Positions 1 through 10,616 of a DNA stretch of 10,616 nt are shown piece by piece; the first letter of the stretch is position 1; the number at the start of each line of letters is the position of its first letter. The stretch covers positions 1-10,616 of the forward strand of contig JBGSTX010000101.1 of NCBI GenBank assembly GCA_041736305.1. The letters are read 5' to 3'. A model generated the notes under the pieces. The model made no database searches. It saw only the letters and a list, made by a program, of their open reading frames with translations, and had not been told where the DNA came from. Source of the DNA: Oligoflexus sp. (lineage in GTDB: Bacteria; Bdellovibrionota_B; Oligoflexia; Oligoflexales; Oligoflexaceae). Both the position numbers and the translations under genes were made by a program.

Positions 1-636
1 CTGCCACTTCGCAAAGTGGAAGTCGAGGACACCGGCTTTCAGACCCATTTGCTTATGGTGGGGCTCAACTTCTCCTCGGACATACCAAAAAAGATCGCCA
101 GCAATGAGAGCGCGCGAAGCCGGATGGAAGTAGACGAGCTCATGACGAGCTACGCCGGGAGCCTGGCTTGTGAAATCTCGCAGCCCGTTGATGCTGATCG
201 TAAGGAGTTCGGGGGCTAAGTGAGCTAGGGGGTCCGTGGCTGCCACGTCGATAAGGGAGTAGGCAAAAGGAGGAGATTTCGAAGGAATGCGGCCAGGCGG
301 TATATAGGCTGTCGAGCCTGGAAATTGCTTTGTGTACTCCTCCATAAAGAGATAATGCCAGTCACCCGTCGACAAGAGAGTCTTGACCTTGGCATTGAGG
401 GACTTTTCGAGCCCTCTCAGCTCCTCGAGCAATTTTGCGCTCAGCTCGGAGGGGTTGACGATGATGAGTTCTCCAGAACCTTTTTTCGCTGGGCGGTGAA
501 TCAAGACAGAGCGGTTTTGCAGCGGGACTTTCTGATCAAACTTGAAGTGAGTCACGTAGGTGTATAGGTCCGTGGAAACTTGGTGGATACGATCGAAGTC
601 CCGCTCCTCGGGATCAAAGGGAGCAACTCGCGACAT
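1..636 (-). CDS. DUF4336-like / metallo-beta-lactamase-fold protein, 3' end truncated by the window edge
   Basis: Not in the ORF track. My translation gives 212 stop-free codons from ATG at 636, with AAAGGA SD upstream: MSRVAPFDPEERDFDRIHQVSTDLYTYV...NRSVLIH...GELIIVNP...VKTLLSTGDWHYLFMEEYTKQFP...HELVYFHPASRALIAGDLFW. The 'H.LF...Y...FP' and 'E..[FY]FH.AS..LI.GD' motifs resemble DUF4336. Confidence 0.7.
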   Translation of the reverse strand, partial: MSRVAPFDPEERDFDRIHQVSTDLYTYVTHFKFDQKVPLQNRSVLIHRPAKKGSGELIIVNPSELSAKLLEELRGLEKSLNAKVKTLLSTGDWHYLFMEEYTKQFPGSTAYIPPGRIPSKSPPFAYSLIDVAATDPLAHLAPELLTISINGLRDFTSQAPGVARHELVYFHPASRALIAGDLFWYVRGEVEPHHKQMGLKAGVLDFHFAKWQ

Positions 637-739
637 AAGCGTCCTTTCTACTGTGGCGGTGAAAGCAGGTTTTTATAGGCAGGACCTCAAAAATCTGTGA
701 AGATCTGCTGCATTTCGCTTTCTATTTTAAAGAGAATAT

Positions 740-1165
740 ATGGACGTATCACTTTGGAAGAAACATATTTATAAATTCGAGCTTAAGGATGAATATCTCG
801 ACGCACTGGGGCATATGAACAACGTCTCCTACTTTCGGGTTTTTGAGGATGCCCGCTGCAAGATGATCGTCGCCGGGGGATACACTGACCAGCTTATGGC
901 CAAACTGCAGCAAGCTCCTGTCGTTCTGAAGATCGAAGTCGAATTTAGGAAAGAAGTTCGAGGTGATCATCAGTTTTATGTGGAAAGCTCGACGCTGTCG
1001 TACGAGGGCAAGGTGCAAAAAGTTTTGCAGGAACTCTGCTCAGAGGAGCTGGGAGTACACTGCAGTGCGGCGTTTACGATGGGGCTTTTCGATATGCAGA
1101 CGAGACGATTGGTGCTGCCCAACCAAGAATGGCTGAAGGCTTCAGGACTGCTGCCTCTTACCTGA
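740..1165 (+). CDS. Acyl-CoA thioesterase, hotdog fold (4HBT/YbgC-like family)
   Basis: 141 aa with the family motif D-x-x-G-H-M-N-N-x-x-Y-x-x-x-F-E-D-A-R, followed by 'VVLKIEVEFRKEV'. Confidence 0.9.
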   Translation: MDVSLWKKHIYKFELKDEYLDALGHMNNVSYFRVFEDARCKMIVAGGYTDQLMAKLQQAPVVLKIEVEFRKEVRGDHQFYVESSTLSYEGKVQKVLQELCSEELGVHCSAAFTMGLFDMQTRRLVLPNQEWLKASGLLPLT

Positions 1166-1646
1166 GAGTCAGAACCTTCCATTTTTCATTCTTGTTTTGG
1201 AAGCTGTGGTCGAAACTATCTCCTACTTCGAGACTCAAAAGCTTTTGCCCGAGCAAAGAGTCGGGAGAGATCACCTGCACCTGCGCGTTCTCCCATTCTA
1301 GAACAGCGCCGGCACCCTGCTCGGATAGAAGATAAAAGGCCTTTATACCCGAGGGGGTGCTGAGAGTCACGAGCGCTCCCTTGTCGATCATATCGTCTTC
1401 ACCGAACTCAGCCAGCTCCTGGCGTTCCAGGTCTAATATCTGTGCCTCTAGCACCCTTGCCCTCTTGTACTGGGATCCGGCCAGATACGACAGCTCAAGG
1501 CCGTGTGTGTCGTACTTACTTTTGGCCAAAGCTTCGCTGTGGGTGGCTCCTTCGTGGGCATTCTGGGCGGCCAAAAGCACCGCTTCCAAATCATGGCGCA
1601 GGCTACCAAGGAGGGCTTTTTTAAGGGCTTTCTTGTCGAAGTTCAT
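1158..1646 (-). CDS. GreA/GreB-family transcription elongation factor-like protein (non-canonical tip motif)
   Basis: 162 aa. N-terminal coiled coil with ATHSEALAKSKYDTHGLELSYLA; C-terminal GreA-type domain (I..GALVTL ... VISPDSLLGQKLL..EVGD). GGAGG SD upstream. Its 3' end overlaps the thioesterase 3' end by 8 bp (convergent). Confidence 0.8.
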   Translation of the reverse strand: MNFDKKALKKALLGSLRHDLEAVLLAAQNAHEGATHSEALAKSKYDTHGLELSYLAGSQYKRARVLEAQILDLERQELAEFGEDDMIDKGALVTLSTPSGIKAFYLLSEQGAGAVLEWENAQVQVISPDSLLGQKLLSLEVGDSFDHSFQNKNEKWKVLTLR

Positions 1647-1801
1647 CCGGGCTGGCCTCCAGCTTCATGTCCAAAGCAGGCCTATTATGGACGTGGACAA
1701 AGAAGTGAGCAAGACACGCTTCCTTTCCCGTGGAAGTCTGGGATTTATGGCTATGTGAAAACGGCATCAATGCTATGATGGTCAGAAAATAGGAGATCCC
1801 T

Positions 1802-2308
1802 ATGCGTATCTTCCTCAAGCGATTCTTTGCTTTCGCTTTCTTGGCTTTGATGACCACACAACCGTCATCTGCAGCAGCAGCTGGCTGGCAGTCGAAGGAC
1901 AACTGCGATATTCCCCTACCTTCGATTAAGGAGGACAAAAAAACTTCCCTTGAGGAGTGCCAGAAGACTTGTGAGGGCTTTAGCGGCTGCAAGGGGCTGG
2001 TTTACGTTACCGGTTGGCAGAAATGCTTTTTGAAAGCTAGCAGCGAAAAGAGGGCCAATATACGCTTCATTTCGGGTGAATTGAACGAGGGGCGCGTCTA
2101 TGAAAAAGGCAGCTTCAAAGTCGACCATGACCACAGCGGGAAAGATATCGAGCGTCTCGTCCTTGCGGACGCAGATGAGTGTGGGCAGGCCTGCGCTGCT
2201 AAAACCGAGTGTCAATCGTTTACTCTCATTGAGGGCTATCGGGTGTGTTGGTTGAAGAAAAAAGGCGGGCGCCTCAATCCCAAAGTTTTTCAATGCTCTT
2301 TTCCTTGA
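1802..2308 (+). CDS. Secreted protein with two PAN/Apple-like (PAN_4-type) domains
   Basis: Signal peptide (MRIFLKRFFAFAFLAL...AAA) and AGGAG SD. Two copies of C-x3-C-x5-C-x11-C-[FW]-L-K (C53/57/63/75 and C127/131/137/149); the second is preceded by D-x-x-G-x-D-I. Confidence 0.8.
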   Translation: MRIFLKRFFAFAFLALMTTQPSSAAAAGWQSKDNCDIPLPSIKEDKKTSLEECQKTCEGFSGCKGLVYVTGWQKCFLKASSEKRANIRFISGELNEGRVYEKGSFKVDHDHSGKDIERLVLADADECGQACAAKTECQSFTLIEGYRVCWLKKKGGRLNPKVFQCSFP

Positions 2309-2413
2309 GGGTTCAAGACTGAGTCATCCTTTCGGAGCATTAAGTTGAAATGGCCTCTACTTGGGTGCAGAATCAAATATATTTCTTGAAATTTGTTTGA
2401 GAGGAGTCATCCA

Positions 2414-3244
2414 TTGACATCGCATTATCTGCTTTCTGCCCTTATCGCCGCTTCAATCGTTTTTACTCAAGGCTGTAAGTCGACCAAATCGAGTGATGCG
2501 AGTTCCGAAACCAACGGGCTCTTTGACAAGTCGGGTCCTCGAGTCGATGGGGCCTACTGTGCCGTCCGTAAAAATAGTCCAACTCCTTTAGGGGATGGTC
2601 CGACCCGCAACGGATACGGGATTTTTTCGGCCTATGCGATCAACCTACCGGGCTATCTCGGCTATTTGGCAAAAGCCAGTAAGGTACTCTCCACATACAA
2701 GGGCAGAGCCGTTATGTGGGGCCCTAATACTCTAGACGTACTTGAAGGCAGTGCCAGCGGATATTTTTTCATGGTCTTAGAATTTTCGAGCATGTACGAC
2801 TTCGATCGCTTCTATTGCGCGGATGAGTATCAGCCTGATGTCATCAAAGAAAGATTTGATGCGACCAAGGTGATCTATTCGGTCGCTAAGGAAGGTGATG
2901 AAAGCTCGATTGGCGTCAATTCATCTTCGACTAAGGGCAATGTCAAAGCCTTTGCCCTCTTCAACGACATTGTAAAAGATAGAAGTAGCTACGACACCTA
3001 TCTCAAAGCAGCCACCGAACTAGCTAAAACCTTCGGAGGACAACGCCTTGTGAGCGGACCCAATCACATCGAGATCGAAGGTTATGCGGAAGACAAGCCG
3101 GATAATCTGACGCTTTTTGTCTTTCCCAGTATGAAAGACCTAAAAGCCTGGTACCGATCCTCTGAGTACGAGAAATTGAAACAAGACCGTCTCGCCGCTT
3201 CCAAAGTGAACTTTGTCCTGGCGAAAGACGGCCTAGCCCCCTAG
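2414..3244 (+). CDS. Predicted lipoprotein with two tandem DUF1330 domains
   Basis: TTG at 2414 lies 7 nt after GAGGAG (2401-2406), a better start than 2393. A hydrophobic stretch ends in TQG-C, followed by a Ser/Thr/Lys linker. Two repeats of Y..Y....Y/F.G.....G.....EG.......[EV]F.SM.D...[FW]Y.S/A.EY.....R, typical of DUF1330. Confidence 0.75.
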   Translation: MTSHYLLSALIAASIVFTQGCKSTKSSDASSETNGLFDKSGPRVDGAYCAVRKNSPTPLGDGPTRNGYGIFSAYAINLPGYLGYLAKASKVLSTYKGRAVMWGPNTLDVLEGSASGYFFMVLEFSSMYDFDRFYCADEYQPDVIKERFDATKVIYSVAKEGDESSIGVNSSSTKGNVKAFALFNDIVKDRSSYDTYLKAATELAKTFGGQRLVSGPNHIEIEGYAEDKPDNLTLFVFPSMKDLKAWYRSSEYEKLKQDRLAASKVNFVLAKDGLAP

Positions 3245-3396
3245 ATGCAGGTGCTTGCCGCAAGTGCAAAAGCCAGCAGATAAAGATTCGGTAAAGATTA
3301 GATCTCTTTGATGAGCTGCTTTTTCAATGGCAGACTTTTTCTAGCAAAACTATCATGATGCCTTATAGTCCATACAAAACATGGGGTGAGGTATTC

Positions 3397-5046
3397 ATGG
3401 TGGCTTTGCACAAAGTCGGGCTTTCGCCTACTCGATTAATTTGCTTAATAAGTCTGCTATCGGTTCTATCCTGCAAAACGCCCAATCAAGCGCCCAGCTC
3501 GGCGGAAGTCAAGGCCGATCAGAATGCTGGTTCGGCTCGAGAAGCCTTTTATGAAACCGCTAAGGTGCAAAAGGTCGAGCTTTGGCTGCCCCAGTGGAAT
3601 GAGCTGGCGACCCAAAAGCCCAAGGGTGGACGTTGCAACTTTTTGTTCCAGGGTGAGCACTACGACGAATTTCAGATCCCCTTGCTGAAGGTCAACGGGG
3701 TCGAATTTAAAAATGTCACTGCAAAAAAATCGTCTCACTGCGGTTCCTATTCGGAAACCAAGCCGAATCTGAAAGTTAAGTTTGGCAAAGCCGAAAAAGA
3801 GCGGGCGGTTCAACTCTTAGGTGTAGACAATCTGATACTCAAGAATTCGGTCCAGGACCAATCGATGATACGCCAGTGTCTGGGCGCCGAGATATTTGCT
3901 AAGGCAGGATTCCCCAAGCAATTTTGCAACTTTGTGGAAGTGTTTGCTAACGGGAACAAGATTGGTCTCTACGTTAACCTCGAGCCTAACGACAAAACAT
4001 TTTTCGCGAGGACCCTGGGCTCTGCGGGCAACCTTTATGAGGTTGCGGGCGAAGAGCTAGCGCCGTGGGCCTATGAGCGCTACAAGAACAACCTTGATAG
4101 CTTCAAGGACCCTGAGGATGAGAGCCTCAGCGACATGAAGGCCTTGGTTAACGCCTTCGGCAGGGATCAGAGTTCAGACCTCAGCGATCTAAAGAACTAC
4201 CTCGACATCGATCAGTTTATCCGCTTCTGGGCCATGGAGAATATCATGGTGCACTGGGACGGCTTCGCGAACAACATCAATAACGCATTTATTTACTTTG
4301 ATCCGAAGGACAATAAAGCGCGCATGCTGCCGCGGGGCATAGACCAATGCTTAACCGACTATATGAATGTCAGGGAGCCGAAAGTCCCCTATACCCAGAT
4401 GCTCTTTCAGAGACACAGTCTGCCTCTTAAACTGACTCAAAATCCTCAGTTCAGAAAACAGTTTCAGGATGCAGTGCGATTTTATTTGAACACCATCTGG
4501 AACGAAGAAGAACTGCTGGCACGCGTTAGCGCCCTGGCCGCTATAGTTTCGCCTTATGTGCCTGATTGGAACATGAATGGCGAGACGAAGTGGTCCTATG
4601 ATCGACTCCGTAATGTGATCCGGGATCGGAAGAAGGATATGGCCATTTTTATCGACAATTCTCCTCTTGCGGGTGCTAGCGGAGGTATTGCCACCTGCTC
4701 CGCAGGAGCGCCGGATACTGACCGTGACGGATGGGGATGGGAAAACAATCAGTCTTGCAAAATTAGCACTGGAGAGGCACCAATTTGTAAGAGCATAGCG
4801 GCTGATGAAGATGGCGATGGTTGGGGGTGGGAAAATAATCAGACCTGCCGCGTATCCGCCGGAGGATATATCGCTACCTGTAAAAACGGCTCGTCGGACC
4901 CGGATGGAGATGGTTGGGGTTGGGAGAATAATCAGACTTGCAAGGTTCCAAAGGGGGACACGCCTGTTTGTCGAAATGGCTCGGCAACCGATCAGGACGG
5001 TGATGGATGGGGCTATGAAGGCGGCAGGAGCTGCAAGGTTCGTTGA
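3397..5046 (+). CDS. CotH-family kinase-like lipoprotein with four C-terminal CBM10-like repeats
   Basis: Likely start is ATG 3397 after GGGGTGAGG (track start 3355). Lipobox VLS-C. CotH motifs: KPNLKVKF, LKNSVQD.S.IR, GLYVNLEP.DK.F, GNLYE, YLDIDQFIRFWAME, HWDG....NN.F.Y. Confidence 0.8.
   Translation: MVALHKVGLSPTRLICLISLLSVLSCKTPNQAPSSAEVKADQNAGSAREAFYETAKVQKVELWLPQWNELATQKPKGGRCNFLFQGEHYDEFQIPLLKVNGVEFKNVTAKKSSHCGSYSETKPNLKVKFGKAEKERAVQLLGVDNLILKNSVQDQSMIRQCLGAEIFAKAGFPKQFCNFVEVFANGNKIGLYVNLEPNDKTFFARTLGSAGNLYEVAGEELAPWAYERYKNNLDSFKDPEDESLSDMKALVNAFGRDQSSDLSDLKNYLDIDQFIRFWAMENIMVHWDGFANNINNAFIYFDPKDNKARMLPRGIDQCLTDYMNVREPKVPYTQMLFQRHSLPLKLTQNPQFRKQFQDAVRFYLNTIWNEEELLARVSALAAIVSPYVPDWNMNGETKWSYDRLRNVIRDRKKDMAIFIDNSPLAGASGGIATCSAGAPDTDRDGWGWENNQSCKISTGEAPICKSIAADEDGDGWGWENNQTCRVSAGGYIATCKNGSSDPDGDGWGWENNQTCKVPKGDTPVCRNGSATDQDGDGWGYEGGRSCKVR
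4687..5043 (+). repeat. Four tandem ~30-31 aa coding repeats, consensus C-x5/6-D-x-D-x-D-G-W-G-[WY]-E-x-x-x-[ST]-C (CBM10-like)
   Basis: First Trp codons of the repeats at 4732, 4822, 4915 and 5008 (periods 90, 93, 93 nt). Amino-acid conservation with many synonymous differences. Confidence 0.9.
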
Positions 5047-5071
5047 GAGCGATGTTGGTCGACGCTCTTGC

Positions 5072-5111
5072 AAAAGCTGCACGCGGTCCTCGCGTGCGGC
5101 GTCAGCCTTTT
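5072..5111. terminator. Putative intrinsic terminator between the convergent CotH-like and peroxidase genes
   Basis: GCTGCACGCG-GTCCT-CGCGTGCGGC (5076-5100) has a perfect 7-bp GC-rich core. AAAA precedes it (a U-tract on the minus strand) and TTTT follows about 8 nt downstream on the plus strand. Confidence 0.45.
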
Positions 5112-5150
5112 ATTCAAGCGACTCCATGAGAAGGCTAAGCCTAGTGACAC

Positions 5151-5720
5151 TCAGCTTTTCTCGGCGAGCAAACCTGCCAATCTAGCTTTGAATCCAGCAT
5201 CATCCGGGCTCGTCGCCGAGCGATAGCGAGCCGCGACCTGGCCCTTGCGATCAATCAAGAATTTTTCGAAATTCCACTGCACTTCTCCACTCTCATCTTT
5301 AGGAGCATGAGCGACGAGATAGCGAAAGAGCGGATGAGTCTTTTCACCTGTTACTACCGATATTTTCGACATCGGGAAAGTAACTCCATAGTTCCGCTTA
5401 CAAAAATCTCCTACCGCCGTCTCATCGGCCAGTTCCTGCTTGAAGCTATTCGAAGGTACTCCGATCACCACCAGACCCTTTGTCTGCTCTTCCTTATAGA
5501 TCTTTTCAAGGCCGGTAAACTGTTTAGTAAACCCGCAGTGCGAAGCAGTATTGACGATGAGCAGAACCTTGCCTTTGAAGCTCGCCAGATCGAGTGGTTT
5601 GCCGCCTATGCTCGTCAGCGCGAATTCGTACACTGAGCCTTCGGCAGCATTCGATTGGCTTCGCCCCGTGAATAAGCAGGAGAAAAACATGAGGCTGAGT
5701 AAAAATCTTGCTATAAGCAT
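5151..5720 (-). CDS. Glutathione peroxidase family protein (Cys-type, BtuE/Gpx-like) with N-terminal signal peptide
   Basis: Motifs GKVLLIVNTASHCGFTKQ, PSNSFKQE, FCKRNYGVTFPM and WNFEKFLIDRKG. ATG 5720 follows AGGAG and gives a signal-like MLIARFLLSLMFFSCLF...SNA; the track start 5798 is less likely. Confidence 0.93.
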   Translation of the reverse strand: MLIARFLLSLMFFSCLFTGRSQSNAAEGSVYEFALTSIGGKPLDLASFKGKVLLIVNTASHCGFTKQFTGLEKIYKEEQTKGLVVIGVPSNSFKQELADETAVGDFCKRNYGVTFPMSKISVVTGEKTHPLFRYLVAHAPKDESGEVQWNFEKFLIDRKGQVAARYRSATSPDDAGFKARLAGLLAEKS

Positions 5721-5846
5721 ACGCTCTCCTGAGATTGGCACTTCTTCACAGTCTAAAGGAATAGCACAGCCCAGCAGCAGAATATAGCAGCGTGCCAAGT
5801 CTCCCAGCGTGCAGCGATTTTACAGCAATGCGCCATTATTTTAAAT

Positions 5847-6440
5847 TCAGCAAGATTGGTCCTCAAGAGCTTTGGTTTGAGCTTGAGATCGTGAGTTTGC
5901 TGAGGGCTTTAAAGGACTAAGCAGGAGATCTTCAAGAAAGAAGGCGGATAATTCCGCGCGGCCAGTCAACTTTGATTTTTTGTAAATAGCTAGGTTTTGC
6001 TGCTTCACTGTCCGGTCTGAGACCTGACGAATTTGAGCAATCTCTTTGATGGATATTCCCTTGAGCAGCAAGAGGGACACCTCTTTTTCAGCTGGAGTTA
6101 AGCTCCAGATATCAAACTGCTGATCAATCATATTACTCAAACCCTGAGCCAGCTGGGAGACATTTTGCTTCCAGCTTTCCGCCTCGCTCCGCAGTTTCTC
6201 TCGATCCTGGACCGCATTTCCCAATTTACGGCGGAGCGACAAGATAGTTGATAGCCATATAAGCAGCAGACTCATCACAGCCATGAGGACGACTAAAATT
6301 TCGGTGGTAATATGCTGGGTGCTAGCTCCTTGATTCATATCTGTAATGGCGTCCCAGAACACCAAGGTGGCGATGCCCGTCAGAACTAAAGATATCCAAA
6401 CCTTTTCCGTAAAAAATTCAATCGTTACTGGAGGTTTCAT
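5847..6440 (-). CDS. Membrane-anchored LuxR-family helix-turn-helix transcriptional regulator
   Basis: Probable start ATG 6440 (MKPPVTIEF). Two hydrophobic helices (VWISLVLTGIATLVFW; ILVVLMAVMSLLLIWLSTIL), a coiled coil, then LTPAEKEVSLLLLKGISIKEIAQIRQVSDRTVKQQNLAIYKK, a LuxR HTH. No receiver domain. Confidence 0.88.
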   Translation of the reverse strand: MKPPVTIEFFTEKVWISLVLTGIATLVFWDAITDMNQGASTQHITTEILVVLMAVMSLLLIWLSTILSLRRKLGNAVQDREKLRSEAESWKQNVSQLAQGLSNMIDQQFDIWSLTPAEKEVSLLLLKGISIKEIAQIRQVSDRTVKQQNLAIYKKSKLTGRAELSAFFLEDLLLSPLKPSANSRSQAQTKALEDQSC

Positions 6441-6596
6441 ATTCTTTGCGCCTTTAGTTCTACAGCGTGGAAAGATCCGAAGAATCAGCAGCTTAGCTGG
6501 ATGATACTTTGTGTCTATAGACCTTACCAGAGATAGGGACGAAATTTGTATGCAGGGGATGCACCCTAAAATAATAAGCATGAATGGAGGTCTTCT
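6441..6596. promoter_or_regulatory. Divergent promoter region with short palindromes
   Basis: 156 bp between divergent starts. Contains CAGCT-T-AGCTG (6489-6499), the perfect palindrome GTCTATAGAC (6513-6522) and a GGAGG SD (6586-6590). No promoter hexamers could be assigned confidently. Confidence 0.5.
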
Positions 6597-7091
6597 ATGA
6601 ACTTAGCTCATCTACACCTTATGGTGAATCACCTGCCTGTGGTCGGCTTTTTGATTCTCTTGCCTTTAATGCTCTGGGCCCTATTTTCGTATAGAGAGGA
6701 AGTTCAACGCTTGGTTTTGGTGGCTACCGTAGGAATAGGATTGCTTGCTCTTCCAGCTATGCTGAGCGGCGAAGGAGCCGAAGAACTCATCGAAAACCAG
6801 CCCGGCATCAGCGAAACATTTATTGAGGAGCACGAGGAGGCGGCCGATTTATCGCTTGCCGCTGGACTCGGCACAGCTGGTCTCGGCGCTTTGGCCCTAG
6901 TCTTCTCATTCTGGCGACGCCGAGTGCCACGTTGGTCTCTAGGCGTCACCCTTGCTGCTATTGTAGTGACCAATATCTCCCTTGCTTGGACAGCCTATCT
7001 CGGCGGCCAAATTCGCCATCCGGAAATTAGGCCCGGTGCTGGCGCGACGTCTAGGGAGTCTCAGAATCAGATCTCGAGTGATGAGCACTGA
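6597..7091 (+). CDS. DUF2231-like four-helix membrane protein, His-rich
   Basis: 164 aa with GGAGG SD. Motifs HLHLMVNHLP, SGEGAEE, EEHEEAA and TAYLGGQIRHPEIR, with four hydrophobic segments. Confidence 0.7.
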   Translation: MNLAHLHLMVNHLPVVGFLILLPLMLWALFSYREEVQRLVLVATVGIGLLALPAMLSGEGAEELIENQPGISETFIEEHEEAADLSLAAGLGTAGLGALALVFSFWRRRVPRWSLGVTLAAIVVTNISLAWTAYLGGQIRHPEIRPGAGATSRESQNQISSDEH

Positions 7092-7182
7092 TCCAGGTGG
7101 AGAAAAGTGCTAAAAGGAATTCCTACTTTCTCTGCCAAAGCAGGAGTGAGATGCTGCCTGCATTACAGGCGAGGGGGCTTGC

Positions 7183-9657
7183 ATGAGGCGCAACGTTCAA
7201 GCTGATCGACTCGACTGGGATTCCCGATCCGGTCTCTCTTCGGCTGAGGCCAGGAGAAGGCTGACGCTCTATGGCCCCAATGCTATTGTTGAAAAGTCAG
7301 GCTCCGCACTGCGTGATCTGCTTGTCGACACCCTCAAAGATCCTATGCTCTGGTTCCTGCTCGCAACGGCTTGTCTTTTCTTTACCATAGGGCAATGGCG
7401 AGAAGCTGTGATACTTGTGCTCGCCATCATACCCCTAACAGGTATGGACGCCTTTCTTCATTGGCGAACTGCCGCATCGACTAGAGATCTCCAGAGCCGA
7501 CTGGCTCAAACAGCTCGTGTGATGCGAGACCAGCAGATCGTAAATTTGCCTACACTTTCGCTCGTGCCAGGAGATCTCGTGGTGGTTCGCTCGGGAGAGT
7601 TTTTCCCCGCGGACGGCATCATTTTAATGGCAGATGATGCGCAAGTTGACGAGTCTGCTCTAACTGGTGAGTCTCTTCCCCTAAAAAAAGTACAGCTAGC
7701 AGACTTGCCGGCAGGCAAAGAGCCTCCCATTGCTGCAGAACATTGGGGCTTTGCCGGAACCAAGCTCTTGGTCGGCGAGATCCAACTCAAGTTGGCTTTT
7801 ACTGGGTCAGATACTTTCTACGGGGAAATCATACAGTCCGTTCAGTCAAGCGGGCATGAACAAACGGCCCTGCAAAAATCTATAGCGCTACTCGTGAAAA
7901 AGCTTCTCCTTGCAGCTGTCGCGTTTTGCATCGTCCTGGCCATAACGAGGTTGATGCAGGGCAAAGGCTTTGTCGATGCCATAGTCAGCGCAGCTACGCT
8001 CGCCATCGCGGCAATCCCCGAGGAATTTCCCGTAGTTTTCACGTTTTTTTTGGGGGTTGGTGTCTATCGCATGGCCCGACGGAAAGCTCTTGTCCGTCGC
8101 GCCGTCTCCGTCGAAAACCTTGGTCGTGTGACCTGCATATGTTCTGACAAGACCGGTACCTTGACTGAAGGCCAACTCCGCCTGGCTCACTGGAAAGCAG
8201 GTGAAGGCTTGACGGAAACAACCCTCTTTGAGATTGCGCAGTGGGCGTCCCGCGCAGATAGCAGTGATCCTCTCGACCAGGCAATCCTGGGCGCTGCTCC
8301 AGCGCTGAAAGTAGAGGGAGAGAAAATCTCTGTTTTTCCTTTCACAGAAAAGCGGCGCCGGGAAACGGCTATAGTCGACAAGGGGGACGAGCAGCTCTTG
8401 GTAGCCGTCAAGGGAGCTCCTGAAGAAATTTTTAAAAGGATTGAAGCTCCAGCATCAGACTTAAAACCCTATCTAGACCTGGTTTCCCACTTGGCTCGCG
8501 ATGGCCATAAGTTGATCGCCTGTGCTCAGCGCTTCATATCTAAAGCGGACTGGGATGGAGAAGAACCCCAGCATGGGTTTACTCTGGTTGGCCTTCTCGC
8601 TTTTGAAGATCCTGTTCGCGAAGCTGTACCGTCGGCTATCAAGGCATGTCGCCAAGCTAAAATTCATGTCTTGATGATAACAGGCGATCATCCGGATACG
8701 GCGGGGACGATTGCGCGTGAAATTGGGCTCGGTGGGACTCATCCACAGGTTTATAATGCAGAGGATGACGATTTTGAGCAAAAGGATGGCACTTTTTTTA
8801 AATCCATCGACGTGGTGGCACGAGCACTCCCTGCCCAAAAACTAGCTATCGTATTGGCTCTCAAAGCCCAAGGCGAACTGGTGGCCGTTACAGGTGACGG
8901 TATCAACGATGTGCCTGCTCTCCAGGCAGCTGACATTGGTATTGCAATGGGCGGTCGGGGCACGCGGAGCGCACGAGAGGTAGCCTCTATCGTTTTGCTA
9001 GACGATAACTTTGCGACGGTTGTGGGTGCGATAGCTGAAGGACGTCAACTTTTAGAGAACTTAAAGAGAAGTTTTCAATACCTCTTGACTGTTCATATTC
9101 CTCTGGTCACAACAGCTGCCCTACTGCCCCTCCTAGGTTTTCCTATCGTTTATTTGCCTATTCATATCGTATGGATTGAACTTCTGATTCACCCGACAGC
9201 CCTCCTCGCTTTTCAAGATGAGTCAAAAGACGAACTTTTCGAGCCGAGTGGAGAAGGGTCAGCCATCCTTACAAAATCGGATTGGTGGACAACATTATCT
9301 GCAGGAGTCCTTGCTTCACTCATCATCATAGGGCTCTATATCTTTGGCCTTGAAAGTGGCACGGATTACGCCCGAACTTTGGCTATTATAAGCTTGCTTT
9401 TGACCAGTATATTTTCGGCGGCTGCCCTTTGCCGATTGCGGACGCGAGCAGCTCGCATTGTTCTCGGCTTGAGTTTTGTTTCTCTGTTTGTCTTCACAGA
9501 GATTCCGTTTTTTGCCGAAGCTCTGCACGTAGATCCACCAAATTGGGAAGGATGGTTACTTATTCTTGCTACTATTGCGGTAGCGATGGGTATCTCTCTT
9601 GGTGGATGGAGTATCTTAAGGCGTTGGCATAAACGTTTGTTTCCAAACTGGGGCTAA
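7183..9657 (+). CDS. Cation-transporting P-type ATPase (P2-like architecture, substrate uncertain)
   Basis: 824 aa with DESALTGES, AIPEEFP (P279), phosphorylation site DKTGTLT (D322), KGAPE, DP, MITGDH and TGDGINDVPAL, plus a multi-helix C-terminal membrane region. Confidence 0.96.
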   Translation: MRRNVQADRLDWDSRSGLSSAEARRRLTLYGPNAIVEKSGSALRDLLVDTLKDPMLWFLLATACLFFTIGQWREAVILVLAIIPLTGMDAFLHWRTAASTRDLQSRLAQTARVMRDQQIVNLPTLSLVPGDLVVVRSGEFFPADGIILMADDAQVDESALTGESLPLKKVQLADLPAGKEPPIAAEHWGFAGTKLLVGEIQLKLAFTGSDTFYGEIIQSVQSSGHEQTALQKSIALLVKKLLLAAVAFCIVLAITRLMQGKGFVDAIVSAATLAIAAIPEEFPVVFTFFLGVGVYRMARRKALVRRAVSVENLGRVTCICSDKTGTLTEGQLRLAHWKAGEGLTETTLFEIAQWASRADSSDPLDQAILGAAPALKVEGEKISVFPFTEKRRRETAIVDKGDEQLLVAVKGAPEEIFKRIEAPASDLKPYLDLVSHLARDGHKLIACAQRFISKADWDGEEPQHGFTLVGLLAFEDPVREAVPSAIKACRQAKIHVLMITGDHPDTAGTIAREIGLGGTHPQVYNAEDDDFEQKDGTFFKSIDVVARALPAQKLAIVLALKAQGELVAVTGDGINDVPALQAADIGIAMGGRGTRSAREVASIVLLDDNFATVVGAIAEGRQLLENLKRSFQYLLTVHIPLVTTAALLPLLGFPIVYLPIHIVWIELLIHPTALLAFQDESKDELFEPSGEGSAILTKSDWWTTLSAGVLASLIIIGLYIFGLESGTDYARTLAIISLLLTSIFSAAALCRLRTRAARIVLGLSFVSLFVFTEIPFFAEALHVDPPNWEGWLLILATIAVAMGISLGGWSILRRWHKRLFPNWG

Positions 9658-9769
9658 ATGAGTGTGTTACATTCCGGGCAGCATTTCTTGCTCTTGGTTC
9701 ACTCTGCGTGCAGATTTGCGCTCGCAGTTGGGGTGGAACGCGTGGCGATCAACGGAGGTGAGATTGAGT

Positions 9770-10616
9770 ATGACAAGTATAAGTGGATGGGTAGCACTAG
9801 CTCTTTTTATACTGTCGTTTTTTCTAGCTGTTCGTCTTCCCTCTGTAAATCGAATCTTTGGAGGCCTGCAGCATCAGCTTCGCTGGCACCACAGGGTAGC
9901 CTTGCTGAGCATGGGGGCTATGCTCTGGCATCTTTTTCAATTGCTTTGGTCCTATGGTTCTGCGTTCCCTATGCTTTTTAACTTGAAGGAGCTCTCCCTC
10001 TTCATGGGCTGGGTAGCGCTCGCAGCGGCTATTTTCGCAGGTTTCTTTGCCTTTCTCCGCAGCAGCATGCCTTATAGACGTTGGCATATGATTCATCTTG
10101 TGACTTGCCTCAGTCTGCTCGCCGCGCTCTTGCATACATACTTCGTGCTGCAGCCCCAGATCCTGAGTGAATGGAGCCTTTTTCTGCTCACTTTTGGGCT
10201 AGGTTTTCTGGCCCTGCTCCTACTCGTGATTCTCCCCAAAGCTGGGTTCTGGGGTAAGGGCTATCAAATAAGTGCGCTAAGCGAAGTACGTCCGGGCCTT
10301 TTTCTTTTAGAGCTTCAGGTTAACGAAAACGTCAGTCCTCTATCCTACTTGCCCGGACACTTTATATATGTCAAATTCCTCGATACGGCCTTCACGCGCA
10401 TCTGGCACCCCTTTACCATTGTCTCATCTCCCGCTCGCTCCGAGCTCGAGCTTCTTATTAAAGCGCGAGGCCAGGATACCAATAAACTGCGAAACCTGAA
10501 GGTACCGAGTCCGCTTCGTGTGCTCGGTCCGTTTGGTAGTCCATTCTGGAAGAAAGATGAAAGCCAGTTGTGGGTGAGTTACGGGGTTGGGGCTGCGATT
10601 TTTCTAGCTGCAATTC
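9770..10616 (+). CDS. Ferric reductase-like / bacterial NADPH oxidase (NOX)-like flavocytochrome, 3' end truncated by the window edge
   Basis: Not in the ORF track. My translation from ATG 9770 (SD GGAGGTG at 9754-9760) is open for 282 codons: MTSISGWVALALFILSFFLAVRLP..RIFGGL..WHHRVALLSMGAMLWH...YRRWHMIHLVTCLSLLAALLH...PGHFIYV...WHPFTI...IKARG...GPFG...QLWVSYGVG. It has bis-heme His pairs (H40/H54, H109/H122) and FAD-domain motifs. Confidence 0.9.
   Translation, partial: MTSISGWVALALFILSFFLAVRLPSVNRIFGGLQHQLRWHHRVALLSMGAMLWHLFQLLWSYGSAFPMLFNLKELSLFMGWVALAAAIFAGFFAFLRSSMPYRRWHMIHLVTCLSLLAALLHTYFVLQPQILSEWSLFLLTFGLGFLALLLLVILPKAGFWGKGYQISALSEVRPGLFLLELQVNENVSPLSYLPGHFIYVKFLDTAFTRIWHPFTIVSSPARSELELLIKARGQDTNKLRNLKVPSPLRVLGPFGSPFWKKDESQLWVSYGVGAAIFLAAI

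Follow-up and report, generated by a model that had tools for sequence, protein, structure and literature searches.

Five neighbouring genes of a hot-spring Oligoflexus-like bacterium encode a membrane-bound regulator, a small histidine-rich membrane protein, a P-type ATPase, a NOX-like flavocytochrome and an exported peroxidase, and the question raised by this locus is whether these proteins serve a common purpose and, if so, which one. The window (the whole 10,616 nucleotides analysed here) is an entire contig, C226 of genome G000, and its open reading frame positions and Pfam domains confirm the five genes described in a sequence-only reading of the same DNA, together with the intergenic gaps of 91 bp (7092-7182) and 112 bp (9658-9769). 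On the minus strand lie a glutathione peroxidase gene (Gpx, GSHPx domain; ORF 5151-5798, likely 5151..5720) and the regulator gene, with a GerE/LuxR HTH (ORF 5847-6581, likely 5847..6440). On the plus strand lie the genes for the small membrane protein (SMP; 6597..7091, 164 aa with four TM segments), the ATPase (7183..9657, 824 aa) and the N-terminal 282 aa of the flavocytochrome (9770..10616, with a FAD_binding_8 domain), the last of which is cut at the contig end. The 156 bp between the regulator and SMP starts (6441..6596) are the presumed promoter/operator region of this divergent pair, and no terminator-like site was found on the plus strand of either gap. A single 5004-nt contig from another study (run X2) spans 5590-10593 with 18 differences, so the gene arrangement is not an assembly artefact.

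Contig C336 of the same genome shares the last 25 bases of C226 and extends the flavocytochrome, in frame, by 108 aa that align with its orthologues (L003:6128-6454, minus strand). Directly 3' of it on C336 lies a gene for an exported cytochrome b5 (L003:5802-6131, minus strand; PF00173), which is beyond the end of the window and absent from the earlier description.

Conservation of the gene neighbourhood

Among the loci fetched from a 131-genome phylum set and the 80 metagenome loci, in which genes were called by a crude ORF script that demonstrably missed some, only this window unites LuxR, SMP, ATPase and NOX-b5 in one locus. That is at odds with a single conserved five-gene system, and so are six gammaproteobacterial orthologues of the ATPase (49-52% identity, found among 400 sampled Gammaproteobacteria), none of which has NOX, b5, SMP or LuxR within ~8 kb. 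What stands of the proposed neighbourhood is the linkage of its parts. The 2-TM LuxR gene adjoins SMP in eight loci, as divergent neighbours in G001, G002, G018, L137 and L188 and in the order SMP, LuxR in L146; SMP is followed by a P2-type ATPase in about nine loci, including G005, L143/L145, L154, L173 and L183/L185; and genome G103 carries both a compact SMP-LuxR-ATPase operon with overlapping gene ends (contig C39) and an SMP-ATPase pair (contig C158). SMP and LuxR are no obligate partners: among 41 relatives, SMP is found in 16, a strong LuxR match in 12 and both in 7.

The association of NOX with an ATPase is borne out within the phylum, where four of the nine NOX-bearing genomes, G000 with this window among them, have a P2-type ATPase gene beside a NOX-b5 pair, in three arrangements and with three ATPase subtypes; the two are divergent in G018, form the series Trx-NOX-b5-ATPase in G020, and in G099 appear as ATPase-VIT1 divergent from NOX-b5. 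A Croceibacterium plasmid likewise carries a USP gene, an ATPase (50% identity) and a NOX-like gene in that order. The Oligoflexia orthologues of the ATPase in G030 and G002 and both G103 copies have no NOX nearby. We do not claim a general link across phyla: a P-type ATPase lies within 8 kb in 3 of 79 NOX loci (L070, with an HMA domain, L078 and L093; the 79 are all but G020's own locus, L034) against a rough chance expectation of ~1.

One explanation is that LuxR-SMP, ATPase and NOX-b5 each work alone and are merely neighbours in a variable region. The uniqueness of the full set and the partnerless gammaproteobacterial contexts fit this explanation, as do the heterogeneous contexts of SMP, LuxR and ATPase and the placement of the LuxR-SMP pair and the ATPase-NOX-b5 group on different contigs in G018. 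It is harder to reconcile with pairings that recur in different orders, orientations and ATPase subtypes, in G018, G020, G099, G103 (twice), G005, the Croceibacterium plasmid and several metagenome contigs, or with the four in nine adjacencies of NOX and ATPase, for which a rough estimate from G018 (7 P-type ATPase matches, assumed ~5,500 genes) gives a chance of ~0.3% per genome. We consider independence unlikely but a contender to be taken seriously. The recurrence of sub-modules in pairs and trios suggests a regulated unit for metal handling and electron export, and our tentative reading is that separately conserved modules have come to lie side by side in this lineage and most likely serve one envelope task, the handling of a redox-active transition metal.

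The ATPase and its ion-site positions

The ATPase carries E1-E2_ATPase, Hydrolase and Cation_ATPase_N/C domains, scores 289.7 bits against TIGR01494 (cut-off 62.3), which places it in the P-type superfamily (HAD-IC), and is probably a functional pump, judging from its intact catalytic motifs (CSDKTGTLT, LTGES and GDGINDVPAL). It stays below the cut-off of every substrate-specific NCBIfam equivalog. Its two top-scoring models are no exception: it reaches 366.8 bits against 615.5 for the plasma-membrane H+-ATPase (TIGR01647) and 366.4 against 798.3 for the PMR1/SPCA-type Ca2+/Mn2+ ATPase (TIGR01522), to which PEEFP and E666/H670 do not conform either. Among solved structures it comes nearest to SPCA1 (7.7e-86), a secretory-pathway Ca2+/Mn2+ pump, and to LMCA1 of Listeria, a Ca2+ pump. 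The window ATPase shares with SPCA1/PMR1 (PDB 8iww, 7yag) and LMCA1 (6zhf) the type II topology, the Cation_ATPase_N/C domains and the DKTGT, TGES and GDGxND motifs. It differs from SPCA1 in having PEEFP for PEGLP in TM4 and His, Glu and His at the Gln, Asn and Asp of TM6 (H..E...H for Q..N...D), and a His occupies a position in TM5. Aligned with SPCA1, the family has Glu, Glu and His throughout where SPCA1 has Gly in TM4 and Asn and Asp in TM6, which we take to be Ca2+ ligand positions, and the invariant residues E280/E281, H638, H661, E666 and H670 are kept by 119-120 of 120 homologues.

The ATPase is a member of a widespread, uncharacterised PEEFP subfamily whose predicted ion-site positions hold a set of three His and three Glu. 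The subfamily comprises more than 120 clusters at identities of at least 49%, including cultured Halomonas and Thioalkalivibrio; a literature search on the motif found no paper, and a literature search on FUPA led only to CtpE, which has VPEGL.

The pump might instead move Ca2+ (or H+), standing beside NOX for charge or pH balance or for Ca2+ signalling and having no transition-metal role. The SPCA1 and LMCA1 matches, the two top NCBIfam models and the name 'Ca2+-transporting ATPase' given to its relatives in source annotations all point that way. However, both equivalog cut-offs are missed widely (367 bits against 616 and 798), the presumed Ca2+ ligand positions are invariantly replaced, and the neighbouring genes, described below, are transition-metal genes; a Ca2+ or H+ pump is, in our judgement, distinctly unlikely. 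We hypothesize that the PEEFP ATPase would move a transition-metal cation out of the cytoplasm, with Mn2+ or Fe2+ favoured. If this were confirmed, the His3/Glu3 set may mark a substrate specificity that is new to the type II P-type ATPases.

An SpNOX-like flavocytochrome paired with an exported cytochrome b5

The start of the NOX-like protein, ATG 9770, agrees with those of its orthologues. The protein matches FAD_binding_8 at 1.1e-10 and contains WHPFT, and H40/H41, H54, H109 and H122 are invariant together with HPF, giving two His pairs on TM3 and TM5 that place it in the family; PF01794 is matched by the orthologues of G018, G020 and G015, the window's own fragment falling short of E<=0.01. 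Its profile match to SpNOX, the NADPH oxidase of S. pneumoniae (8qt6/8qq7), reaches 4e-40 over the full length, and the two share a size of ~380-390 aa, a ferric-reductase TM domain, the four His positions predicted to ligate haem, an HPF(T/S) FAD motif and, as a candidate in the window's protein, an NAD-type domain at the C-terminus. In the window's protein the NAD domain is weakly detected (PF00175, E 0.087), and its motif, YGVGAAIF, has Ile where the canonical GxGxxP has Pro. SpNOX and subgroup B have GGxGI(T/A)PF at this site, whereas the window's subgroup (G000, G018, G020 and G015) has YGVGxAIF. Unlike SpNOX, this subgroup has CGHPGFQ in place of CGP, belongs to a Gram-negative host and is always followed by an exported b5 gene.

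The b5 gene overlaps the end of NOX through ATGA and encodes a signal peptide and a b5 domain (PF00173, 1.4e-11; 44.7 bits against a gathering cut-off of 23.7). In the alignment with 3lf5, the first His of this domain falls on the His of HPGG, and the window's b5 reads KEHEDKCK where eukaryotic b5 has HPGG; the second His, kept in all six local homologues, is a candidate match to the canonical second ligand. Among the first five structural matches, cytochrome b558 of Ectothiorhodospira vacuolata (1cxy, 1.7e-7) covers the widest stretch of the query, residues 26-105 against 10-86. It too is a small bacterial soluble b5-type protein, presumably periplasmic, and differs from the window's b5 in that the C-terminal tail of the latter is basic and includes a conserved (P/A)H(K/S)(R/K)K.

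All nine NOX-bearing genomes of the 131-genome phylum set have the NOX-b5 pair, and of 80 NOX loci from across phyla 16 have it, so that it reaches beyond Oligoflexia to Hydrogenophaga, Gallionella, Pandoraea, Dehalococcoidia and DPANN loci. Because the pairing is obligate, we infer that NOX passes electrons to b5, so that electrons would leave NAD(P)H, cross the FAD and two haems of the SpNOX-like enzyme and reach the exported cytochrome. With an exported b5 present, the acceptor is more likely to be a protein than O2 or a metal, and in this respect the metal/redox unit of the sequence-only reading needs amending, while its metal part is supported by the neighbouring genes and the His/Glu sites. 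The SpNOX structure paper allows for a protein acceptor, reports that SpNOX directly reduces cytochrome c and draws the analogy of a NOX-type enzyme with MsrPQ (PMC11564096). In MsrPQ, a membrane haem protein of FRD type (MsrQ/YedZ) gives electrons to a periplasmic partner, MsrP, much as the window's enzyme might; the latter has its own FAD/NAD domain, however, and its partner is a b5-type haem protein instead of a molybdoenzyme; no MsrP was seen. The nearest genomic parallel is the 'pFre' clusters of CPR bacteria, in which a ferric-reductase-domain gene adjoins cytochrome-b5-domain genes, often with a signal-transduction system, and the preprint describing them states that IMG showed no such colocalisation outside CPR (bioRxiv 10.1101/2021.11.17.468889). 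Unlike the CPR case, the window's b5 is a small soluble protein with a signal peptide, and the NOX-b5 pair shows linkage to P2-type ATPases. If confirmed, an obligate NOX-b5 pair in a Gram-negative lineage, beyond CPR, would offer a tractable system for the acceptor and role of a bacterial NOX.

Eukaryotic FRE/FRO are reductive uptake systems, and by analogy NOX-b5 might reduce periplasmic Fe3+ (or Cu2+) for import of the reduced ion by the ATPase. Membership of the same enzyme family as ferric reductases, the ATPase-NOX adjacency and a TonB-dependent receptor on the same stretch of the Croceibacterium plasmid speak for such a route. Set against these are the outward transport from the cytoplasm that is usual among type II P-type ATPases, the company kept by SMP relatives, which accompany exporters (RND, VIT1) and not importers, and the view, taken in the SpNOX paper, that SpNOX's direct activity as a ferric reductase is probably not physiological (PMC11564096). 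We judge reductive uptake to be quite improbable.

The membrane regulator, the small membrane protein and their metal-related neighbours

Homologues of the regulator begin at its M48 (start 6440), which makes the protein 197 aa long, with a pair of TM segments (14-32 and 48-66), a coiled linker and a GerE/LuxR HTH (PF00196; 27.7 bits, above the gathering cut-off of 23.5). Its best NCBIfam match is LIC13292_fam (NF047608; 2.3e-21, residues 83-220), but a score of 76.6 against a cut-off of 200 leaves it outside that family, on which a literature search found no paper. Without exception, 17 family members keep D30, D34, H43 and E47 around the short periplasmic loop. The protein is probably a membrane one-component sensor, whose Asp-Asp-His-Glu cluster may bind a divalent cation and whose cytoplasmic HTH would control the divergent promoter region. 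That region (6441-6596) holds a 10-bp perfect palindrome, which is within chance expectation, and a search of 5700-7300 and 9600-9800 for inverted repeats gave none that was convincing. A common operator, TAGGAC-N4-GTCCTA, is shared by the LuxR paralogues that adjoin DUF2271-like genes; the window has three matches to it at three mismatches, against 2.7 expected, and none in 5151-10616. In a tree of the LuxR sequences, the regulators linked to SMP or ATPase form no supported clade, so no co-evolution argument can be built on them.

In alignment A2 of SMP, N11, G58, A61, H79, G136, I139 and H141 are invariant and H7, H12, P14, G17 and E143 nearly so, and the conserved His all lie on one membrane face, predicted by the positive-inside argument to be periplasmic. 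Its AlphaFold model is a helical bundle (pLDDT 90.4), for which a fold search (Foldseek against pdb and, more widely, VIA) gave nothing beyond generic helical bundles and de novo designs, and so pointed to no specific relative. The label 'DUF2231-like' that it had been given probably holds as remote similarity only: SMP itself has no Pfam match at E<=1, its homologue L031 matches PF09990 at 3.3e-5 but with 24.4 bits against a cut-off of 26.4, and DUF2231 occurs in 15-25% of the members of the nearest ESM Atlas clusters, which score 0.94-0.95. A literature search on DUF2231 found nothing relevant. A complex prediction for SMP and ATPase scored 0.00, a result that, made without controls, counts neither for nor against contact.

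Metal-related genes recur beside these two families. In G001, the gene VIT1 replaces the ATPase in the arrangement LuxR divergent from SMP-VIT1; VIT1 also comes after SMP in G010 and after the ATPase in G099, and a GDT1 gene is preceded by a LuxR paralogue. Metagenome loci were scanned for SMP with an alignment of 8 closer rows. ACR_tran adjoins SMP in nine of these loci checked with Pfam, and six more have the same gene series; a CusB-type HlyD_D23 domain was confirmed beside ACR_tran/SMP in L175 and L180 and is the sole checked neighbour in L171. MerC, CopD and plastocyanin lie near SMP homologues in metagenome loci, an HMBD/YHS gene adjoins SMP in G010 and G002, and in about half of the metagenome SMP loci the neighbours look like housekeeping genes. 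The SMP/LuxR neighbours and the invariant His/Glu-rich sites of ATPase, SMP and LuxR point to a metal theme, and SMP, with His/Glu motifs at its predicted periplasmic face, may act as a metal-handling accessory of exporters. If confirmed, the 2-TM LuxR (Asp-Asp-His-Glu) and DUF2231-like families would be a candidate sensor and accessory of metal homeostasis.

A model of the locus

Putting these modules together, we hypothesize that the regulator senses metal and would have SMP and the PEEFP ATPase as its target unit, that the ATPase pumps a transition metal, with Mn or Fe favoured, and that NOX exports electrons from NAD(P)H to b5, which would reduce an acceptor in the periplasm, perhaps the transported metal in its oxidised form; we hold this composite as a possibility that falls somewhat short of probable. 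A bolder version, in which the PEEFP ATPases form a hitherto unrecognised class of type II pumps for a redox-active transition metal (Mn2+/Fe2+) and work with a NOX-b5 exporter under a metal-sensing LuxR in Oligoflexia and some Proteobacteria, is a good deal more speculative and, as it stands, unlikely. Were it true, bacteria would have a counterpart of the eukaryotic systems that combine a pump with a ferric reductase, and a bacterial NOX would gain both a natural protein acceptor, b5, and a physiological task, control of the periplasmic redox state of the transported metal.

The exported peroxidase

The Gpx frame is open from TTG 5798, with M27 at 5720 as the likely start; read from M27, it has a hydrophobic N-terminal segment (residues 1-19), and its translation contains WNFEKFL and, with the active-site Cys, NTASHCGFT. 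It belongs to the glutathione peroxidase family (PF00255, 97 bits against a cut-off of 27) and scores below the BtuE equivalog NF007900 (133.7 against 270). Three overlapping, weak promoter-like matches lie upstream of it (5866-5817, minus strand). By blastp, no Gpx homologue stands beside the homologues of ATPase, NOX, SMP or LuxR in the loci compared, and this exported Cys-type Gpx is a local neighbour, not a conserved member of the unit in which it had been placed.

Gpx enzymes draw on thiol reductants, and this, with the lack of a conserved Gpx nearby and a one-face arrangement of the conserved His that is ill-suited to a trans-membrane haem pair, makes it very unlikely that SMP is a haem or electron-transfer protein feeding periplasmic peroxide-removing enzymes such as this Gpx within an envelope oxidative-stress unit, for all that SMP has four conserved His, is followed by a catalase-like gene in G010 and adjoins a multihaem cytochrome c or DHC in G002, L136 and L142. 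The nearest Gpx-like neighbour in the compared loci is a DsbD-redoxin fusion in L217.

Gene content and order

The window is an entire contig (C226, 10,616 bp) of a 392-contig genome bin. An ORF listing and a Pfam scan agree with the sequence-only reading on five genes: on the minus strand, a glutathione-peroxidase-family protein (Gpx, 5151-5798) and a GerE/LuxR regulator (5847-6581); on the plus strand, a 164-residue small membrane protein (SMP, 6597-7091), an 824-residue P-type ATPase (7183-9657) and a NOX-like flavocytochrome (9770-10615). The 91 and 112 bp intergenic gaps are exactly as that reading gave them, and neither holds a terminator-like site on the plus strand. The most likely start of Gpx is M27, from which the protein has an N-terminal hydrophobic segment, and that of the regulator is M48 (position 6440), from which it has two TM segments. 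A 5004-nt Logan contig from an independent study (run X2) spans 5590-10593 (18 differences), which shows that the gene order is not an assembly artefact. Elsewhere on the plus strand, 3355-5046 encodes a 563-residue protein in which a CotH kinase domain precedes two CBM_10 carbohydrate/protein-binding modules, and 1802-2308 a 168-residue protein with a pair of PAN/Apple domains, a type more familiar from eukaryotes.

The flavocytochrome and its cytochrome b5

The NOX-like gene is truncated at the contig end. Contig C336 of the same genome shares the terminal 25 bases of C226, and there the frame runs on for 108 residues that align with orthologue C-termini (53% identity to that of genome G018); the join is based on this 25-nt overlap and on homology. 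Overlapping the NOX stop codon (ATGA) is a gene for a 109-residue protein whose N-terminus resembles a signal peptide and which carries a cytochrome b5 domain (PF00173, 1.4e-11), hereafter b5. This gene, missed by the sequence-only reading, changes which electron acceptor is likely.

A profile of seven NOX orthologues matches SpNOX (8qt6, 8qq7) over its full length (4e-40). The HPF(T/S) motif and all four haem-ligand histidines are conserved without exception. At the NAD(P)H motifs, the subgroup to which the window belongs reads YGVGxAIF and CGHPGFQ, in place of the canonical GGxGI(T/A)PF and CGP of SpNOX and another local subgroup; its NAD domain is weakly recognised by Pfam. Donor specificity or binding may differ in this subgroup. 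The bacterial cytochrome b5 1cxy is among the top matches of b5 (1.7e-7) and, of the first five hits, covers the widest stretch of the query. We hypothesize that NOX hands electrons from NAD(P)H to b5, which agrees with remarks in the SpNOX structure paper on the possible existence of a protein acceptor and on direct reduction of cytochrome c by SpNOX (PMC11564096). Conceivably, b5 might keep the transported metal reduced, or might reduce an oxidised form of it.

We searched a set of 131 genomes of the phylum with the NOX profile and the ATPase, and 40 relatives with each protein, and annotated the resulting loci. A full-length NOX homologue was found in nine genomes (G000, which is the window's own, G002, G004, G008, G015, G018, G020, G072 and G099), and b5 lies immediately downstream in all nine. 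Across phyla, b5 adjoins NOX in 16 of 80 NOX loci, eight of which are, by their record titles, neither CPR nor DPANN (L034 Oligoflexales, L045 Dehalococcoidia, L052 Hydrogenophaga, L055 Gallionella, L090 Pandoraea and three unclassified). A preprint has reported the pairing for CPR and states that it was not observed elsewhere (bioRxiv 10.1101/2021.11.17.468889).

Several further genes lie near NOX-b5 pairs. Directly upstream in two genomes is a thioredoxin gene (L015:9914-10549 in G020; L027:924-1316 in G004); one of the products has 211 residues with a 100-residue N-terminal extension, and the other is of the Trx2 type with a zinc ribbon. A gene for a BIM1-like/LPMO_10-like copper protein lies about 1.5 kb beyond the pair in G072 (L132:216-884, contig C193). 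On C336 (locus L003), b5 is followed downstream by a DUF4258 / DUF2283-HTH_17 pair with overlapping ends that resembles a toxin-antitoxin module (4954-5504, plus strand) and, beyond it, by a 1237-residue hybrid histidine kinase that combines two kinase cores with two receiver domains (48-3761, plus strand).

The PEEFP ATPase

All catalytic motifs are present in the ATPase, which passes the general P-type model and falls below every cut-off of the substrate-specific NCBIfam models. Among solved structures, SPCA1 (Ca2+/Mn2+) and Listeria LMCA1 are the closest to it. In the alignment, PEGLP of SPCA1 is PEEFP in the window's protein, the TM6 Gln, Asn and Asp are H661, E666 and H670, and a TM5 Ser is H638; in SPCA1/SERCA these positions are the ion ligands. 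Among the best 120 database homologues (49-64% identity), which include proteins of Thioalkalivibrio, Halomonas and Pirellulales, E281, F282, H638, H661, E666 and H670 are kept in every sequence and E280 in 119. Our literature search found no paper on the PEEFP motif; CtpE, the subject of a paper on an 'uncharacterised family', belongs to a VPEGL family. The ATPase would export a transition-metal cation. Mn2+ or Fe2+ is favoured as the substrate, since SPCA1, the closest pump of solved structure, is a Ca/Mn ATPase and VIT1 or GDT1 replaces or accompanies the ATPase at related loci; VIT1 transports Fe/Mn and GDT1 Ca/Mn.

The small membrane protein and the regulator

SMP has no Pfam hit and is remotely DUF2231-like. 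Seventeen homologues have in common the motifs HLxVNHxPxxGF, TGEPAEEVIE...HEExAE and HEGGKIRHPEI, with four histidines invariant or nearly so. The TM3-TM4 loop is basic, and we therefore infer that all conserved motifs face the periplasm. AlphaFold confidently models SMP as a helical bundle (pLDDT 90.4), for which fold searches found no specific solved relative. SMP may be a periplasm-facing accessory of exporters. In a metagenome scan with the SMP profile, from which 80 loci were kept, an ATPase of a second PEEFP subgroup lies directly downstream in L143/L145, L154, L173 and L183/L185, and LuxR adjoins SMP in L137, L146 and L188. Pfam confirmed ACR_tran at nine loci (L175, L180, L182, L189, L192, L193, L197, L198, L205) and CusB-type HlyD_D23 at three (L171, L175, L180); six further loci share, by product length, the same series of 412-, 408- and 1029-residue genes. 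Three loci (L136, L142, L186) have the order DHC-RR-HK, SMP, multihaem cytochrome c.

The regulator resembles the NCBIfam LIC13292 family, with a score under the cut-off. D30, D34, H43 and E47 are invariant in 17 family members; they sit where TM1 and TM2 reach the outer face and in the loop that links the two helices. Invariant His/Glu residues occur in three membrane proteins, the ATPase, SMP and the regulator, with Asp in addition in the regulator. We propose that the regulator would sense a periplasmic divalent metal and control the divergent unit. Its paralogues adjoin DUF2271-like periplasmic proteins, the one in the window's own genome having ApbE next to it; other paralogue neighbours are cytochrome b561, GDT1, RND-OEP and YceI. 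In one paralogue clade (tree support 100/99), the regions between the regulator and the divergent DUF2271-like gene each hold two palindromes close to TAGGAC-N4-GTCCTA (L117:1589-1783, L118:5709-5828, L121:6604-6728, L122:6780-6932, L127:6963-7114, L129:2465-2624), which, judged from sequence, are likely the operator of that clade.

One system or loose neighbours

The sequence-only reading had proposed a coupled unit of regulator, pump, redox enzyme and peroxidase, and this proposal is supported in part. Blastp against the related-locus ORFs found no Gpx homologue beside homologues of the ATPase, NOX, SMP or LuxR, and the peroxidase is a bystander. Gene calls in these loci came from a crude ORF script that missed overlapped genes, and all ORFs were re-scanned with profiles.

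Nor do the remaining parts form a single conserved system. Among the loci fetched, LuxR, SMP, ATPase and NOX-b5 occur together in the window alone; G018 has LuxR and SMP on one contig and the ATPase-NOX-b5 group on another. Across 41 relatives, SMP and LuxR are both present in seven, SMP alone in nine and LuxR alone in five, and the SMP-linked regulators form no supported clade. Of 400 evenly sampled Gammaproteobacteria, at least six have an ATPase orthologue (a floor, as two candidates were scored per genome); in none of the six does NOX, b5, SMP or LuxR lie closer than about 8 kb, and their neighbours are heterogeneous (a DsbD-redoxin fusion, cytochrome b561 with YceI, a second P2 ATPase).

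What did hold are recurrent linkages and a regulator-SMP-ATPase core. In G103, SMP, LuxR and ATPase are tightly packed in that order on contig C39, with LuxR and ATPase ORFs overlapping by 4 bp, and SMP precedes an ATPase on C158. The divergent LuxR-SMP pair recurs in G001, G002 and G018; in G001, VIT1 follows SMP at the position held by the ATPase in the window. The ATPase and NOX are neighbours in four of the nine NOX-bearing genomes, the window's included: in G018 an orthologous ATPase (61% identity) is divergent from NOX-b5, 145 bp apart; in G020 thioredoxin, NOX, b5 and a second-subgroup ATPase (31% identity) lie on one strand; and in G099 a PEGLP-type ATPase with VIT1 is divergent from NOX-b5. 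A Croceibacterium atlanticum plasmid has USP, ATPase (50% identity) and a NOX-like gene in series, without b5. Both this core (regulator, DUF2231-like protein, PEEFP ATPase) and its connection with NOX-b5 are real, yet loose and lineage-specific. We regard domain identities, intact catalytic motifs, the invariant residues and recurrent gene linkages as established; the locus combines a P2-ATPase of an uncharacterised subfamily carrying a His3/Glu3 site, a NOX-b5 pair from beyond CPR and a member of a family of putative 2-TM LuxR sensors.

One further cluster recurs, in which cytochrome b561, DUF1924 and dihaem cytochrome c (DHC) accompany an OmpR-type response regulator (RR) and a 2CSK_N histidine kinase; it is joined to a PEEFP ATPase in G030 (L131, contig C316, 181-6407) and to SMP and multihaem cytochrome c in metagenome contigs L142 (2-6599) and L136.
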